The position numbers were made by a program, and so were the translations under genes. The notes under the pieces were generated by a model that was not told the origin of the DNA, searched no databases, and was given only the letters and a program-made list of their open reading frames with translations. 64,000 nucleotides of DNA from Pristiophorus japonicus (taxonomy: Eukaryota): NCBI RefSeq assembly GCF_044704955.1, contig NC_091984.1:204166001-204230000 (forward strand), in the 5' to 3' direction. Shown in pieces: positions 2,121 to 57,699 of the stretch (position 1 is its first letter; each line of letters begins with the position of its first letter).

Positions 2121-5100
2121 GGATAGGCCCAGAACAGAGGCCTCCGATTCATCTAATTGTAGCTTCGCTTTCAATTCCTCAGGAATCCGACCGGAGTAAC
2201 TTCCTGCACTCGAAACGCGTTTTTTTTTTAAACCGCTCCCTATGGAGTGTTTATATGATTTTAATCTATTTAGTTTGGAGCAAATCTAATTTTAGACTAA
2301 GCACATGTGCGGCAATGGATGTGTTCATTCAGAATGATTGTAAATTTCGTTGCCTTGAAATTTGTAACTTTTTTCCCAGTCTCATACCTGCAGAGTTCAT
2401 TCATTGCTGCTCTGAAATAGCTTTTGATTAACCCATTTACGGTCAATCCATGGAATAATGTACATCATTTGTATGTTTCAAAATCTTAAATGTCTGTCAT
2501 TACTCCAAAACCATTGATAAATGTCGTAGTAGACACTCTTCCTGTAATAAAGGTTAAATTATGATTCATTCAAATTGCAAATTTAGCGTCAGTGTAAAGG
2601 GGTAATCGGATGTGAAGGTCCGAACTAAAGCGGAGTGAGACTCCTTCCTCCAGACCATAACTCTGGATTCAGTCTGCATTTAAACTGTAATTGTAATACA
2701 GGCGCAAAGCCAAACCGCTTCACATGGGTGCAAAAATTGTTGTGTTAATGCACTTTTGGTCCTGATTTGAGACTGGCCACTGCTTGGAAGTATGTAGAAC
2801 TAGTTCTCCAGACAGACTCTACATAATCATACCAAGTACCGATTAATTTCTGATAAGATTAAAAATGAAGTTTAAAAAGTTCTGAGGTAGTCTGTTTGCT
2901 TAGCACTACGTGTAGTCATGTAGCTGGTGCTAAAGCTGAAGGACTGAGACAACCTTCTTGAGCTGGTCTCCCACCACTTATTAAAATATGAAATACCACA
3001 ACATGCAGTTATAGCTGTATTTTTGCATTGGTGTAAAAACAACTGAAAAATGTGTCGTAATATCTAGGAAAAATAAATCTGGTATTTTGTTTTGGTGCTG
3101 ATATTGTGTAGACCTCTGTCCATTTCAAATGAGGATTATTGTAAATGCATGGTGATTGGTGCAGTGTTAAATTGTGTTTTTATACGGGTGTGAATGATGC
3201 TGATTGGCATCATTTTATTATTGAGATTTGTGAGATGTCTGTGTAGTCCTTGGTGATTAAAGTTTGAAGTTGAGAGAAGGAAAACTAACAAGTATAGCTT
3301 TCTTGCCATTATTTAGTAAATAAAAGATTACCACTATTACAGTATGGTGTGTGTGGTAAAAGATGGGTTGAATAGTGTACAAGTAGCTGAGTATATTTTA
3401 ATGTACTAATAAAATATTGTACGATGTCCTGACCACAGTACACTGGAAAAAGGTTTTTTAAGGGTTTGATCTTGAATGCTTATTGTCAATATGTTGAGGT
3501 TTTTTCCTTAACAGTCTGTTAACATCAGGAACTGAGGAGGAAGTTGAACTTGTTGACCCAGCCAAGGTAACATGAATATACATTTTGCATTTAACACTGA
3601 ATAATGTTTTCGGTCATTGTGTTCAAATGAACTGCTGCATTCCGTCACACAGATAATGTAATATTTTCCATTTTATACACTGCTATCTCCATACATGTCA
3701 ATGGATTGTATGTTAATATTTGGCCAGTTTTATATTCTGCATTTTAGCCATTAATAGCTTAAGAGACTGCCATTACATAAAATCGTCAATATATCTTGGT
3801 TTATAGGACACAGTTGCTTGGCACATTTGTGCAATGTATTAACCGAATAAATGTAATATGTCTGGTTTGTGTTTAACTTTCAACATAAATGTTGAATATG
3901 GAATCCAATCCAAGTTAAGTTTTGAACATTTTCATTAACTTCTAACCTTTCTTTGTGCCAGTAAAATAGTTGTGAGTGACTCCAAAACAGATGGTCCAAT
4001 GGTTCAGATATTATTTATGAACAATAATATTTCAAAGTAAGTTTGAGTTTAAGCATAATCACATTTTAAAGTTTTACTTATTGCTTTACAGTATTTCCAA
4101 TTTGTCACCAGCTGCTCTGATTTGTGCACCCATTTAATTTCAGGCAGTTTCATCAAGAAATTGAAGATTTCATTACAGGTTTAGCTGAAAAATATGAAAA
4201 AGAAACGCAAAGTGACCCTGAAAAAACATCATTTAATGTGAAACCTCAGGTGAATAAATATATAATTTCAGAAAATACAGATTTTGTTCAGAGAATTTTT
4301 GAAATATTTATATAAAAATACCTTTCTTTTCAGCCATCAAGTGTGCTACTGGAAGAGCACCTGGAAGTGAAAACTTTAAATACGGTCAAGAGAATAAAAG
4401 ATGCATTTCATGTAAGTGACAAATCCTAATATCATTATTTGTTTGAATTATTAAAAGCCATGGCTCAAAACTGAAGTCACAATCTCTGAGCAGATCAGAA
4501 AGATCCAAGTTTGATCCCTGGTCTGTGCCGAGTTAGCTGGTCTCTGGAGTTAGCAGGAGTGATGCAATTGGCAGCAGTGTTCCCCTGGGTTGGGTAAGGA
4601 CAAATCGACCAGGATTCCCGCACCTACTTGCAATCCAATAGCTCCTGTTGCAAATGCACGTGGATACCAGATGAGGACAGGTTTGAGCTTGGTGCAATGT
4701 GTGGCACAGTCAATAGTCAATTGCCATTCACTGTCCTGGCTCATTTGAATAATGGTCTCTTGGATGAGGTATCAGAAGGATCATGAATTCTATTCAAATT
4801 ATTTAATCTTCTGTGGCAGTTCTCCCAGCACCAAAGATAGTCAAGCAGAACTTCAGAATATCTAAACATGTTATTCAACCGTGGTTCTTTCCATGGTCCT
4901 CACAGTTTAGAAATAATTGCATTCCGAATTTGGTCATCCCTGGCTCCAATTAAAACTTGTTCCTAACTGGACGTTAGCCATTTTTAAAAATTAAGGCATT
5001 AATACCATGCTAACTGCTATGTAATGAGCTTTTCACATATAGGATGGTGGGGGAAATTCTTGTCCCTATTCTTGTTTGAAGCTTGTTAATTTTGTACTCG

Positions 5101-49455: not shown

Positions 49456-52357
49456 CATAGAAACATAGAAAATAGGTGCAGGAGTAGGCCATTCGGCCCT
49501 TTGAGCCTGCACCGCCATTCAATAAGATCATGGCTGATCATTCCTTCAGTGCCCCTTTCCTGCTTTCTCTCCATATCCTTTGATCCCCTTAACCATAAGG
49601 GCCATATCTAACTCCCTCTTGAATATATCCAATGAACTGGCATCAACGACTCTCTACGGCAGGGAATTCCACAGGTCAACAACCCTGAGTGAAGAAGTTT
49701 CTCCTCATCTCAGTCCTAAATGGCCTACCCATTATCCTAAGACTATGTCCCCTGGTTCTGGACTTCCCCAACATCGAGAACATTCTTCCCGCAGATAACC
49801 TTGGCTTGAGCAGTGGTGCAGCAGGGAGGGATTCAAATTCGTGGGGCATTGGAACAGGTTCTGGGGGAGGTGCGACCAGTACAAACCGGACGGTCTGCAC
49901 TTGGGCAGGAACGGAACCAATGTCCTAGGGGGAGTGTTTGCTAGTGCTGTTGGTGAGGAGTTAAACTAATATGGCAGGGGGATGGGAACCAATACAGGGA
50001 GACAGAGGGAAACAAAAAGGAGACAAAAATAAAAGACAGAAAAGGGATGAGTAAAAGTGGAGGGCAGAGAAACCAAAGGCAAGAAACAAAAAGGGCTACT
50101 GAATATAAAAGGGCTGCAGGAGGGGTAAAAACTAAAAATCATGGTTTAAAAACGAGGATGAAAACACTCTACCTAAATGCACGCAGCATTCGAAATAAAA
50201 TAAATGAGTTGACGGCACAAATCATTACAAATGGGTATGATTTGGTGGGCATTACAGAAACATGGTTGAAAGGTGGCCAAGACTGGGAATTAAACATACA
50301 GGGGTATCTGACGATTCAGAAAGATAGGCAAGAAGGGAAAGGAGGTGGGGTAGCTCTGTTAATAAAGGATGATATCAGGGCAGTTGTGAGGGATGATATT
50401 GGCTCCAATGAATAAAATGTTGAATCATTGTAGAAATAGTAAGGGGTAAAAGTCACTGGTCGGCGTAGTTTATAGGCCCCCAAATAATAACTTCATGGTG
50501 GGGCGGGCAATAATCCAGGGAATAATGGAGGCATGTGAAAAAGGAACGGCAGTAGTTATGGGAGATTTTTAACCTACATATCGATTGGTCAAATCAAATC
50601 GCAGGGGGTAGCCTGGAGGAGGAATTCATAGAATGCATACGGGATTGTTTCTTAGAACAGTATGTAACAGAGCCTACAAGGGAGCAAGCCATTTTGGATC
50701 TAGTCCTGTGTAACGAGACAGGAAAAATAAACGATCTCCTCGTAAAAGATCCTCTCGGAATGAGTGATCACAATATGGTTGAATTTGTAATACAGATTGA
50801 GGATGAGGAAGTTGTGTCAGAAACAAGCGTACTATGCTTAAACAAAGGGGACTACAGTTGGATGAGGGCAGAGTTGGCTAAAGTAGACTGGAAACAAGGA
50901 CTAAACGGTGGCACAATTGAGGAACAGTGGAGGACTTTTAAGGAGCTCTTTCATAATGCGCAACAAAAATATATTCCAGTGAAAAAGAAGGGCGGCAAGA
51001 GAAGAGATAACCAGCCGTGGATAACCAAGGAAATAAAGGAAAGTATCAAATCAAAGACCAATGCGTATAAGGTGGCCAAGGTTAGTGGGAAACTAGAGGA
51101 TTGGGAAAATTTTAAGCAACAGCAAAGAATGACTAAAAAAGCAATAAAGAAAGGGAAGATAGATTACGAAGGTAAACTTGCGCAAAACATAAAAACAGAT
51201 AGTAAAAGCTTTTCCAGAAATATAAAACGGAAAAGAGTGACTAAAGTAAATGTTGGTCCCTTAGAAGATGAAAAGGGGGATTTAATAATGGGAAATGTGG
51301 AAATGGCTGAGACCTTAAACAATTATTTTGCTTCCGTCTTCACAGTGGAAGACACAAAAACCATGCCAAAAATTGCTGGTCATAGGAATGTGGGAAGGGA
51401 GGACCTTGAGATGATCACTATCACTAGGGAGGTAGTGCTGGACAGACTAATGGGACTGAAGGTAGACAAGTCCCCTGGTCCTGATGAAATGCATCCCAGG
51501 ATATTAAAAGAGATGGCGGAAGTTATAGCAGATGCATTTGTTATAATCTACCAAAATTCTCTGGACTCTGGGGAGGTACCAGCGGATTGGAGAGCAGCTA
51601 ATGTAACGCCTCTGTTTAAAAAAGGGGGCAGGCAAAAGGCAGGTAACTATAGGCCGGTTAGTTTAACATCTGTAGTGGGGAAAATGCTTGAAACTATCAT
51701 TAAGGAAGAAATAGCGGGACATCTGGATAGGAATAGTGCAATCAAGCAGACGCAGCATGGATTCATGAAAGGGAAATCATGTTTAACTAACTTACTGGAA
51801 TTCTTTGAGGATATAACGAGCATGGTGGATAGAGGTGTACCGATGGATGTGGTGTATTTAGATTTCCAAAAGGCATTCGATAAGGTGCCACACAAAAGGT
51901 TACTGCAGAAGATAAAGGTACGCGGAGCCAGAGGAAATGTATTAGCATGGATAGAGATTTGGCTGGCGAACAGAAAGCAGAGAGTCGGGATAAATGGGTC
52001 CTTTTCCGGTTGGAAATCGGTGGTTAGTGGTGTGCCACAGGGATCAGTACTGGGACCACAACTGTTTACAATATACATAGATGACCTAGAAGAGGGGACA
52101 GAGTGTAGTGCAACAAAATTTGCAGATGACACTAAGATTAGTGGGAAAGCAGGTTGTGTAGAGGACACAGAGAGGCTGCAAGGAGATTTGGATAGGTTAA
52201 GCGAATGGGCTAAGGTTTGGCAGATGGAATACAATGTCGGAAAGTATGAGGTCATCCACCTTGGGGGAAAAAAAACAGTAAAAGGGAATATTATTTGAAT
52301 GGGGAGAAATTACAACATGCTGTGGTGCAGAGGGACCTGGGGGTCCTTGTGCATGAA

Positions 52358-53803
52358 ACTCTTTTTGGGAGTAAACAAAAAACATTAAACCGTGCCCCCC
52401 CCCGATCTGGGGGAAACACCAAACATTTACAGGCCCTTTTATTTTTTGGGGGGTTTTTTTTGGGCACAAAAACATATTTTTCTCCAAGTGCCCCCTATAA
52501 AAGGGGAGGGGGACACTAAAAGCACCGGCAATTAAAACAAATTAACTTAAAAACATAAAATCAAATTAAAATTTGGTTGCCAGGCGTGATGATGCACTCC
52601 AGTCCCTCCGGTGCCCACCTCTCGCGGAAGGCCGCGAGCGTACCGGTGGACACCGCGTGCTCCATCTCCAAGGACACCCTGGACCGGAAGAGAGGCAGGC
52701 AGTCTGGCTGAACGACCCCCTCGACTGCCCGCTGCCTGGACCGGCTGATGGCCCCCTTGGCCGTGCCCAGGAGCAGTCCTACGAGGAGGCCCTCGGACCT
52801 ACCCGCTCCCCTCCGCACAGGGTGCCCGAAGATCAGGAGTGTGGGACTGAAGTGCAGCCAGAATTTCAGGAGCAGCCCCTTTAAATAACAGAACAGGGGC
52901 TGCAACCTCATGCACTCAATAAAAACATGGAACACGGTCTCTTCCAGACCGCAGAAATTGCAGGCGGCCTGGGAGCCCGTGAACCGGCTTAAAAATTTAT
53001 TGCACGGCACTGCTCCGTGCATCACCCTCCAGGCCAAGTCCCCGACAAATAGTGGGAGGACCCCTGCGTAGAGTGCCCTCCATCGGGGACCCCCGCCTCC
53101 TCCAGACGGCAAGATGGTACGCCATGGCGTGTCCGGACGGCAGGCGAGGATGGCAAAGTTGTGAGTGTGCAGGAGCAGCCCGTACAGGAAACCCCTCCGT
53201 GCGGAACTGAAAAGCACGGAGGGGATTTCCCCGAGGCGGCTCAAGTTGTGAGGCGCCGGCCCCCGAGGGAGGTTCCGGGGTTTGGCGCCGATGAGGAATT
53301 CCGTCCGGACGGGGGTCAGTTCGGACGGGATCTCCCCACGTGCTTGAGCCTTCTCGATGCACCTAACGGAGTCGGGGCCCAGAGCTCTTTTTAGCGACTC
53401 GACGGCATCGGCCGCGTGGCGGACGTTGGCAGAATTTAGGCGCCGCGCCAGCGTGTCTGGCGCCATCCAGCCCGCTTCTCCGCCATCGAGCAGGTCCCTG
53501 ACCCTGGTCACCTCACCAGCCACAGCCCTCTCGTCCGACCGCCACCTAAAACCTTGGTCGTGGAGGTACGGATTCCCGAGCAGCGGCTCCTGCAGGACGG
53601 CCGCCACTCCAGCCGGTGGAGAGCTGCGCTTGGTGGAGACTTTGTTCCAGACCCTGATGAGTTCCTTGTAAAAGACAGGCAGCTCCCGGAGGGCGGTCCT
53701 GACGCCCCCCACACTCACAAACAGGAGCTGCGTGTCGTAGTTGAGGCCGTGCTGCTGGCGGAAGAAATACGTCGCCAGAGCACGCCACCTAGGAGGGGGC
53801 TTG
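52358..53803 (-). mobile_element. 5'-truncated Tx1-clade (L1 group) non-LTR retrotransposon
   Basis: Open frame from about 53800 to 52561: LPVFYKELIRVW, EPLLGNP, DLAWRVMHGAV and the CCHC motif CNFCGLEETVFHVFIEC; CpGs intact, so young; TSD CATGAA. Confidence 0.88.
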
Positions 53804-53818
53804 AAAAATTACATCAGT

Positions 53819-53887
53819 TGCGATGGCCAGGAATCGAACCCGGGTCAACTGCTTGGAAAGCAGCTATGCTGACCACTATACCACCAT
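53819..53887 (-). tRNA. tRNA-Gly(TCC) retrocopy lacking its first 3 nt, with a 3' trailer and T5; no CCA
   Basis: The minus strand reads ATGGTGGTATAGTGGTCAGCATAGCTGCTTTCCAAGCAGTTGACCCGGGTTCGATTCCTGGCCATCGCA then ACTGATGTAATTTTT; D, anticodon and T arms are intact. Confidence 0.9.
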
Positions 53888-55548
53888 GAATCCCAAAAGG
53901 TTAGTTTGCAGGTGCAGCAGGTAATCAGGAAGGCAAATGGAATGTTGGCCTTCATTGCGAGAGGGATGGAGTACAAAAGCAGGGAGGTGTTGCTGCAACT
54001 GTATAAGGTATTGGTAAGGCCGCACCTGGAGTACTGCGTGCAGTTTTGGTCACCTTACTTAAGGAAGGATATACTAGCTTTGGAAGGGGTACAGAGACGA
54101 TTCACTAGGCTGATTCCAGAAATGAGGGGGTTACCTTATGATAGATTGAGTAGACTGGGTCTTTACTCCTTGGAGTTCAGAAGGATGAGGGGTGATCTTA
54201 TAGAAACATTTAAAATCATGAAAGGGATGGACAAGATAGAGGCAGAGAGGTTGTTTCCATTGGTGGGGGAGACTAGAACTAGGGGGCACAGCCTCAAAAT
54301 ACGGAGGAGCCAATTTAAAACCGAGTTGAGAAATAATTTCTTCTCCCAGAGGGTTGTGAATCTGAGCTATCCTGCGATTCCTACTCTGACTAGCATGTGG
54401 CACTGGTCGCAATCCTGAGATTACTACTTTTGAGGTCCTACTTTTTAATTTAACTCCTAGCTCCCTAAATTCGTCTCATAAGACCTCATTCCATTTTTTA
54501 CCCATATCGTTGGTGCCTATATGCATCACGACAACTGGCTGTTCACCCTCCCTTTTCAGAATGTCCTGCATCCGCTCCGAGACATCCTTGACCCTTGCAC
54601 CAGGGAGGCAACATACCATCCTGGAGTCTCGGTTGTGCCAGCAGAAACGCCTATCTATTCCCATTACAATTGAATCCCCTATCACTATCGCTCTCCCATT
54701 CTTTTTCCTGCCCTCCTGTGCAGCAGAGCCAGCCACGTTGCCATGAACTTGGTTGCTGCTGCTCTCCCCTGATGAGTCATCCCCCTCAACAGTACCCAAA
54801 GCGGTGAATCTGTTTTGCAGGGGGATGACCGCAGGGGACCCCTGCACTACCTTCTCTGCACTGCTCTTCCTGTTGGTCTTCCATTTCCTATCTGGCTGTG
54901 GACCATTTACCTGTGGTAAGACCAGATGAGCTCTGAGACGGGTTGGGAGAAATAGGAGAGCAAGACATGAGTTCAGGGCTGGATAGAGGGGAGGTTTGGC
55001 TTAGTGGGGAGGATGCAGCAGAGACAGATAAATGGATGGTCTTAATCATGGTGATCAAGAAGTCCGAGAGCTCCTCGCACTAGTTGGGGTGCAGGAGAGA
55101 AGGATTTAAAGAGACATTGATAGTGGACAAAAGTAGTTGGGTTATCTTTGTTTTACAAGGATGATCCTGACATAGTGTGCGGTTTTGGCAGAGAAAGTGA
55201 GGCTTGATGTGTCCAGCCAGATCTGATGATGGATGGCGAAACCAGTTGTGCACAAGATAAGCTCAAGTTTGCACCCCTTGGACTTGCACAGCAACGATGG
55301 GGTCCATGAAGAGGAGTGATCGATATGGGAGAGATTAAAGGTTTTACTGGGGACAAAGGCATCAACATTGGAGGTGCAGCTGCAGAAGTATTGTGGCAAA
55401 TGGAAGGACACAGGCTAGACAGTTGGCTGCTTGAAAGTGCTATTGTAAGTGACTTGGTGGGGGAGGAAAGTTTTTCCCAGGGTGGTCACAGACGGAAATG
55501 GGGTTGGAAGGCAGTAGGGGGATGTGGGTGGTGAGGGATAAAAGAGGT

Positions 55549-55939
55549 AAATAGGTGCAGGAGTAGGCCATTCGGCCCTTCGAGCCTGCACTGCCATTCA
55601 ACAAGATCATGGCTGATCACCACCCCCCTCCCCTCCACACACCCCCCCCCCGATCCCCCCAACCGCAATGACCACATCCAATGAACTGGCATCAACAACT
55701 CTCCGCAGCAGGGAACCCCACAGGCCAACAACTCCCCGAGTGAAGAAGTCTCTCCCAATCCCAGCCCCAAACAGCCCACGCCCCATCCCAAGAGCGTGCC
55801 ACCCCCCACCCCCCAGCTCCAGACCCACCCAACACCGTGAACACTCCCCCCGCACCCAACCCGCTCCGTCCCATCAGAATCCTTCCCAAATGCCGAACAC
55901 CCCCGGATGTCGAGCCCTCAGCCCCAGCCACTCCGGAGC
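55549..55939 (-). mobile_element. Internally deleted CR1 copy with A-to-G hypermutation
   Basis: Aligns to 49470-49791 and then to 8200-8262, with T>C changes on the + strand. Confidence 0.88.
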
Positions 55940-57699
55940 AAGTACTTGGAGATGGCTGTGCGAGTAGAGAGGCCATATGAGGTGGCAAGATTCAGGGGGT
56001 GGCCATGAATATGTTCGGAGAATTTTTTTGGAGGGAGAGCTGTAGAGAGGACAGGAGAGAGGGCAACGTGAGTTGAGATCTCCCAGGATGAGGAGCCACT
56101 CTGAAGAAGTTGAGGGAAGAAAGCAGAGAGGATATGTGAGGGTTGGGGGGGGTGCAGGTGTGGTAACGAACACGATTTTTCAAGGAGTTTGAGAGGGGTG
56201 GAATGAGGTGAGGTGCTCAAAGAAGAAATTGCCAGAGGAATGATTTCACAATAAGGGCCACCCTACTATTGCAGTGCTTTAGTTGAAACAAGTGGTGATG
56301 TCACCACAATAACTTTTTTTCCAAGGCAACGATGAAACTTATGGCGTTCTTAACCTCAGCAGGTAGTTTAGGCAGCTTCTGTTGAAACTATTCAAACAAT
56401 TCTGTTTGGCTATCCCTCGTGCAGGAGATGGTATAATTTACATTGTGTTATAGCACAATGATAGAATTCTTTGTTGTGACAGGGTGTGAAGGAATTTAAT
56501 ATTTTCCCTGTTTGGGTCATATCTCGTAAGTGTACCAAACCAAATTGTACTTTGCACTCCAGCAATCTGATACAGAAAGACCTTTTGACTGCACATGAAC
56601 AATCTGAGTCAGCATGCTTTGGATAGGTCTGCTCTGACTTGTACCACATACAGTATACGATCTATAGTTTTCTTTGTTCTTTGTGTGAAAGCTGTGTTTG
56701 GAGTCCTACAATGGTTCTTAATGTCTGATAATTATGTGGAGGACATGGTGGATTAGAGCACGATACTTTCAGTTCTGAGATCTGGGTTTGAATCTGGCCT
56801 GAATAGTGGGAAGAGTGTTTCTTCTCCCTGGCAGCAGTAAGGGTTGTATGTCAAATGAGTTTGTCCGTTCCCACCCAGTTATCGCTGCAAATCTGGGGCA
56901 CAAAACGATTCATAACTTGACACCAAATTGGTTGTCTAAAGAAGCAGAAAAATGGCTGGTATGGAAAATATAAAAACTTTAATATTTTTTCATGCTCTCA
57001 CTAGTCGATCTCCTGTGGCAATGCGCACATAGAAAAAAATAGATAAATAATTGTTTGGAGCAGTTTGCCATACTTGTCCTTCAGTTTTAAAGACCACTAA
57101 TATGTGGCATAAATATTCACGAGGATAGATACCCATTTCTTTTTATTTGCTCTCCTTCCTCACCTGACTTATTTGAATCTTCTGAGTAGACCTTCCCTTC
57201 ACGGTAAGAATTGCACCATATAAGACGGCCTGGTGTTGGTATTCTTAATTTAACAATAGGTTAAGGTAGACTGAGCGTAAAACATGAAACGGGGCATGTA
57301 GTGGACAATCATGTTTCTTCCCATCCCACAAAATATAAAATCCTTTCTCAGCTATGTTTCATTCCTTGAGCTGTAAAATAGATAGTTTCCCTGTTCCCAG
57401 CCATTTTGTAATGCTAGTCTGTTGAGTGACTCTGACGTTTCTCTTTCTAATGAGGAAACTCATTGTCTCAGGCTGCCTGCGGTGCAAAGATTTGAAGCTT
57501 TAAAGTCTAGTGCAAAAACTATCAACAAACATCACTGATTGGGAAAACTGTAGGACTTCAATCTTCGCCATTTGTGGATCGTTGCAAACATAATCACAGA
57601 AGGGTTTATTACCTGGTTTCCTAATGATCCAGTGGACCAGTAGACTGTTTTGTGTGATACTGAGTCATAGCAAAAAAAGTCACTGGTTCAATCTGCGTA

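Follow-up and report, generated by a model that had tools for sequence, protein, structure and literature searches.

The segment at 55549-55939 of the window, which is the whole 64,000-nt stretch of Pristiophorus japonicus DNA analysed here, is CR1 sequence on the minus strand, and it is a 5′-truncated copy of a non-autonomous CR1-derived family that inherits one fixed A-to-G pattern. Judging from the sequence signature, it is quite probable that a single CR1 RNA was hyper-edited by ADAR, reverse-transcribed and landed beside a VNTR, where it became a master that was amplified in trans. The amplified family is an SVA-like CR1 derivative with a founder that was probably hyper-edited by ADAR, residing in a genome where such insertions recur. 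The initial annotation had read the segment itself as the DNA record of an edited CR1 RNA, and had considered that a high-copy subfamily already carrying these bases would speak against such a reading. A subfamily of this kind was found, with at least 899 copies; however, nearly all differences between it and its coding-competent CR1 parent are sense A>G changes, so that the editing is moved to the founder rather than removed. The proposed ADAR-to-DNA route is supported by the substitution spectrum, the sequence context and 26 further independent cases, but the window copy is not itself the edited one.

Structure and setting of the window copy

Read from its 3′ end, the copy begins with the terminal 70 nt of CR1 (55549-55619, minus strand), which had been described as almost untouched and in fact hold a single edit (55602) before position 55620. 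These terminal 70 nt are likely the RT-recognition tail of the element. They can be folded as a nested stem-loop, with a z of -1.0 that is no better than shuffles and not significant; in LINEs of this type the 3′ end is recognized stringently, with involvement of a stem-loop (PMC3747384). The octamer tail repeat present in sister copies is missing from the window copy. The tail is followed by a hyper-edited CR1 3′ segment (55620-55878, minus strand), comprising the ORF2 end and 3′ UTR with 51 A>G sites, and, beyond the deletion junction (55879-55881, minus strand), by a hyper-edited AP-endonuclease piece (55882-55939, minus strand) with 9 A>G sites, whose parent region matches Pfam PF03372. 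At this junction, which is common to the family, about 2.3 kb of ORF2 is gone, in agreement with the first estimate, the deletion measuring 2227-2368 nt against eight parent copies. The ATCCTT microhomology originally proposed for the join was overstated, as only 3 nt (ATC) match exactly when the unedited parent is considered. Splicing was rejected as the origin of the deletion, given that no GT/AG is found at the joins. The 5′ truncation falls at 55939, and longer family copies extend from there via the ORF2 start and a spacer into the VNTR.

The insertion target was an older repeat, whose left half lies at 55380-55548 (plus strand; 39 other copies, 74-90% identity) and whose right half, identified by flank comparison with host copies, lies at 55940-56200 (plus strand). 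The two flanks are contiguous, with an overlap of 3-7 nt, in 5 of 11 host copies, the remaining 6 being poorly aligned.

The reference sister in alignments to the window copy was a parent-subfamily CR1 whose 3′ end, at 49461-49795 (minus strand), is unedited. Compared with it, the plus strand of the window copy carries 43 T>C, 5 A>G and 1 C>T. The one-sided T>C excess, initially put at about 40 changes, is real and was undercounted: relative to the parent column majority (29 copies for the 3′ part and 7 for the endonuclease part), A is replaced by G on the sense strand at 61 of 102 A sites, as opposed to 2 T>C, 5 G>A and 8 C>T.

Elsewhere in the window, an ORF1 fragment of the parent CR1 subfamily occupies 54365-54925, on the same strand and 600 nt from the edited copy. 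Positions 52500-53800 are coding-like and GC-rich (57-65%) and lie inside a CR1; from its resemblance, we take this stretch to be probably another retroelement, on the minus strand, and the short piece that comes after it (~53820-53885) is presumably tRNA-like.

Size and architecture of the edited family

A search of the species' own genome (5.9 Gb) returned 2385 first-look candidates, and all 39 non-self matches that were scored are 86-90% identical to the window copy, nearly all of them over the full length. A 25-nt pattern across the junction had 899 exact genomic matches, compared with 0 for the reversed control; given these exact matches and a divergence of 3%, the family would amount to about 2,000 copies. 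The spacer alone, used as a query, gave 1819 candidates. Contigs of two other studies, P2 (organism A) and P3 (organism B), leave none of the 30 bins uncovered, and each study has one contig that spans the junction; in runs of organisms C and D the edited middle was uncovered, which does not amount to absence. The contigs of P2 and P3, one of these studies being labelled as another organism, together with the 899 dispersed junction matches, exclude an assembly artefact, for which the initial annotation had allowed.

In long copies, a 37/38-bp VNTR is followed in the 3′ direction by a 160-nt spacer and by about 340 nt that extend from the end of ORF1 into the endonuclease; beyond the junction come about 350 nt of the 3′ end and then an octamer tail. 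Family 5′ ends are variable and fall anywhere, often within the VNTR; the insertions also have tails and short overlaps at the target. The features of a non-autonomous LINE-mobilised family are all present, namely dispersed copies, the 3′ tail of the partner, 5′ truncation and no RT. The VNTR, the spacer and the amplification itself were beyond what the initial annotation could see.

The 74 aligned copies have one fixed edit pattern in common, with 9078 of 9506 edited sites retained. Retention was 6720/7022 in the 54 top matches and 2358/2484 in 20 extra copies, which were hand-picked among the first 100 junction matches listed, T-bearing variants included. The lowest value among the 74 was 75%, in a copy diverged by 13%. 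The pair discordance within the family was 0.05 (2698 pairs) and its non-CpG divergence 2.8-3.0%. The window copy retains 60 of 62 family edits and carries one new T>C in 42 sites.

Editing signature of the family

The family majority was built from 54 of 59 rows, leaving out a duplicate (L103), a copy with a chimeric 3′ end (L094) and three rows in which the anchor was missing (L080, L085 and L087). When these 54 copies were compared on the sense strand with the parent majority (29 and 7 copies), 141 A>G were found, as opposed to 5 T>C, 6 G>A, 5 C>T, 1 A>C and 2 A>T, so that transversions make up 3 of 144 changes at A; about 25 non-A>G differences separate the family from the parent. The direction of change from parent to family is clear, since the A-bearing parent encodes the APE, the RT and an esterase-like ORF1. 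Among the 219 parent A columns, G occurs in <10% of copies at 77, in at least 80% at 139 and in between at 3. A sense G>A excess, the APOBEC signature, was not found, with 6 G>A of 219 G columns.

Family editing varied with the 5′ neighbour (U 28/29, A 53/65, C 27/40, G 32/67; p=1.7e-6), and the neighbour preference put forward at the outset as a mark of ADAR was recovered, G being depleted 5′ of the edited A (32/67 vs 108/134, p=3.6e-6). No 3′-neighbour effect and no 3′ G preference were seen (p=0.56), which is a point against ADAR. Depletion of G upstream of the edited site is a general trait of ADAR hyper-editing in metazoans (PMC5625713), and the signature as a whole points to ADAR as the probable editor. 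In the tail (last 70 nt), 1 of 15 A is edited versus 140 of 201 in the body, and the difference persists when sites with a 5′ G are left out (1/10 vs 108/134, p=1e-5). The parent sequence has a GC content of 47.6% and 13 CpG, the edited sequence 67.3% and 40; each of 51 family copies contains 3-8 G-quadruplex-like patterns, compared with 0-1 in each of six parent copies. The suggestion that edit-made CpGs had later decayed holds in that two CA>TG sites agree with it, but these are fixed family-wide and not private to the window copy.

Parent CR1 and a proposed route to the master copy

Elements of the CR1 clade of LINEs are characterized by an esterase-type ORF1 and an octamer tail repeat. In the parent CR1, octamer tail repeats were seen, ORF2 (L068) matches an AP endonuclease (PF03372, E 1e-10) and an RT (PF00078, E 1e-33), and ORF1 is esterase-like, with GDSL/OSK matches (E 1-2e-4) that lie under the curated cut-off. 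The parent begins with the VNTR of the family in inverted orientation, as seen in 4 of 4 full-length elements among 11 long copies and in 30 loci from a 5′-end search. Neither parent nor family shows sequence beyond the VNTR array, so transcription likely starts in the VNTR or runs through it, and the VNTR may represent a bidirectional putative promoter supplying antisense RNA.

The founding of the family could then have proceeded as follows. An internally deleted CR1 RNA would have formed a duplex with antisense CR1 RNA, in which roughly 70% of its paired A would have been deaminated, a level at the high end, which is a point against the ADAR reading. The unedited tail would have let the CR1 RT prime, with I read as G, and the resulting cDNA, truncated within the edited tract, would have inserted at a distance of 160 nt from a 37/38-bp VNTR array. 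This insertion may have become a master through transcription that started in or passed across the VNTR; the parent CR1, using the same VNTR in the other direction, would have copied it in trans about 2,000 times. Such a course agrees with the spectrum, the sequence context, the polarity, the conversion of A runs and the sparing of the tail.

In searches for a precursor, the unedited junction had 0 matches in the own genome, and the 5′ join in its unedited form had 10, of which 0 continued into the spacer. The search for a master locus, in which parent and family would share an array, was also negative: the 30-kb array ends in unrelated sequence, the spacer was present at none of the 30 parent 5′ ends examined, and the three arrays of greatest length likewise run out into unrelated DNA. 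Neither a double-stranded partner nor a source locus for the founder RNA was found in the loci examined, no spacer homologue outside the family was found in the DNA examined, and an Rfam search gave no match. The spacer itself may be unedited, to judge from its intact T runs. The failure to find a precursor, a master locus or a double-stranded partner weighs against the proposed route.

Independent edited CR1 tracts

Further hyper-edited CR1s, whose existence the initial annotation had anticipated, were found with one search pattern placed in the RT region, which is deleted in the family, and carrying four forced edits; it gave 26 matches (loci L211-L236). Outside the pattern, all 26 loci show a T>C excess, with plus-strand counts of 1832 T>C vs 100 A>G that are inflated because tract ends were chosen for maximal T>C; the weakest locus is L220 (4/10). 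The tracts measure 64-1114 nt. The edited fraction by 5′ neighbour is 0.69 for U, 0.65 for A, 0.39 for C and 0.33 for G, and by 3′ neighbour 0.55 for G, 0.50 for A, 0.43 for U and 0.42 for C. The highest conversion within single tracts reaches 66-73% (L212 and L224), and conversion is complete in 48 of 166 runs of three A and in 11 of 65 longer ones. Discordance between independent-tract pairs is 0.39 (241 pairs), and such a value, 39% vs 5% in the family, indicates that the 26 tracts are separate events. So, as far as these sequences tell, edited RNA appears to reach the germline repeatedly in the Pristiophorus japonicus lineage.

Among the tracts with a visible tail, 22 of 23 stop 212 nt or more short of the 3′ end (p ~0.01), and one, which counts against the reading, comes to 30 nt from it; the idea that an RT-recognition tail was spared from editing is therefore supported by both the family tail and the independent tracts. 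The element ends at the 5′ edge of the tract in 11-12 of the 26, versus 5.4 expected (p=0.02, with a rough control). Recurrent tract boundaries are suggested by three ends at 212-214 nt and three at 282-293 nt from the 3′ end.

A broader process is possible, although doubtful: recurring, lineage-wide ADAR mutagenesis of LINEs, in which the two-way VNTR would feed antisense RNA, hundreds of edited CR1 RNAs would have entered the germline, and editing would have made a GC-rich, G-quadruplex-prone parasite that pairs poorly with antisense CR1 RNA and has kept its tail.

Alternative explanations

Five SINE copies (L178/L006:2221-2385, L179, L180, L209 and L210), which were found with T>C-biased queries, carry independent dense T>C on the sense strand (19/74, 21/80, 35/104, 26/55 and 17/90, respectively), with an ADAR-like context on the opposite (antisense) strand. 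We take these copies to be tRNA-headed, head and sense strand having been judged from the sequence. Searches with SINE patterns gave 0 and 0 for sense A>G vs 3 for T>C (one pattern), which is too few to call a bias, and SINEs carried by a CR1 tail were 3/5 among the edited vs 5/23 among controls. The antisense-strand signature counts against the favoured ADAR explanation, since priming on the element's own tail cannot yield it.

Both polarities would be accounted for by polymerase error, with dG placed opposite T/U under dATP shortage by the RT of the element or by a polymerase-eta-like enzyme: second-strand errors would give sense A>G, as in CR1, and first-strand errors sense T>C, as in the SINEs. 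The errors of polymerase eta also prefer a 5′ A/T (WA), which resembles the observed context. However, conversion of 50-70% of A with 3/144 transversions and with full runs of 3-4 or more would demand serial mismatch extension, and the tracts are sharp-ended and spare the 3′ end; this explanation is regarded as improbable.

A low probability is likewise given to changes made at the DNA level, whether by ADAR or another deaminase acting on dA in an RNA:DNA hybrid or by in-place overwriting with edited host RNA. Such events would account for the antisense-changed SINE copies and for tracts inside long copies, but editing of first-strand cDNA would produce sense T>C, which is the wrong polarity for CR1, and in-place conversion is not favoured by the occurrence of an inverted partner within about 1.5 kb at 1 of 26 edited loci vs 2 of 30 controls. 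Moreover, the excess of elements that end at the tract 5′ edge ties the tract to reverse transcription.

A stepwise origin, through several lighter editing rounds or GC-biased drift via successive masters, is very unlikely. In its favour, the 70% conversion is high, and the fixed CpG decay and the ~25 non-A>G differences imply that the founder line had some history before amplification. Nevertheless, no intermediates were found among the 74 copies and no linked polymorphic columns were seen, single independent tracts alone attain a comparable conversion, and GC-biased conversion is strand-symmetric. That the window copy is a one-off edited insertion, for which nothing beyond the spectrum speaks, is next to impossible considering the family edits that it holds (60/62).

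Relation to known systems

Proviruses of retroviruses hypermutated from A to G have reportedly been observed in the RAV-1 LTR and in spleen necrosis virus vectors. These cases are said to share with the CR1 family the copying of ADAR-type changes into DNA by RT; they differ in being single retroviral clones whose edited product was not amplified. SVA-like composites are likewise GC-rich, VNTR-bearing, trans-mobilised and variably 5′-truncated, whereas in the present family body and tail are from CR1, the VNTR is at the 5′ end and the GC content comes from A>G conversion. Among the defining parts of SVA (hexamer, Alu-like, VNTR, SINE-R, poly(A) and L1 partner), the VNTR alone is held in common. 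The shark LINE-tailed SINEs HE1/HER1 (PMC3747384) also have a 3′ end in common with a partner LINE whose recognition is stringent; in contrast to them, no tRNA-derived head is seen here and the body is deleted LINE coding sequence.

ADAR clusters in repeats, including those of the elephant shark, are likewise dense, one-stranded A>G with upstream G depleted, but they are RNA-versus-genome differences (PMC5625713), whereas the changes in the CR1 family are genomic and inherited. As for DNA editing by APOBEC, PMC4866542 and PMC2873906 similarly describe a deaminase scar fixed in genomic copies and found against unedited sisters; there, however, G>A arises through deamination of cDNA C and LTR elements were screened, while here the change is A>G, the element is a LINE and the edited copy founded a family. 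The screen of LTR elements in PMC4866542 included a filter against A>G, and in PMC2873906 A>G served as a class for comparison. The role of ADAR editing in subfamily evolution has been called undetermined (PMC4982230), and no editing was found in L1 RNA in human cells (PMC5224506), which counts against the favoured reading. A literature search, covering mostly open-access papers, retrieved no report of an A>G hyper-edited copy that gave rise to a retroelement family.

If ADAR hyper-editing of a CR1 RNA founded the family, RNA editing would be a heritable origin of new families of mobile elements. A single editing event appears to lie behind some 2,000 copies, and the genome contains 26 or more additional edited insertions. 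Together they would form a dated record, kept in the germline, of the targets of ADAR, the sequence context and the length of edited tracts, as well as a natural map of the 3′ region required by the CR1 RT. Such elements are easily overlooked or classed as low-complexity DNA, and the scan is applicable to any animal assembly.

Chimeric copies and VNTR arrays

The family copy L094 carries the 3′ end of another CR1 subfamily, by template switch or conversion. L140, L141 and L145 belong to a separate small chimeric family in which unedited CR1 is joined to a different 5′ sequence at the 5′ join point of the edited family. Private T>C clusters occur in short VNTR ends at ~4220-4300 (oriented) of L065 and at 1721-1800 of L095, affecting 5/10 and 5/18 T against a background of about 1%, and are possibly due to later editing of the VNTR. 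Run X9 (organism C) contains the VNTR at high depth and spacer-like pieces, which makes the VNTR likely older than the family. Finally, one family copy (L062+L076+L107; G000:C4:158337332-158367254) carries a VNTR array of 800 units and 29.9 kb, bracketed by what looks like one Gypsy-like element, and retroelement copies may in this manner seed large satellite arrays.
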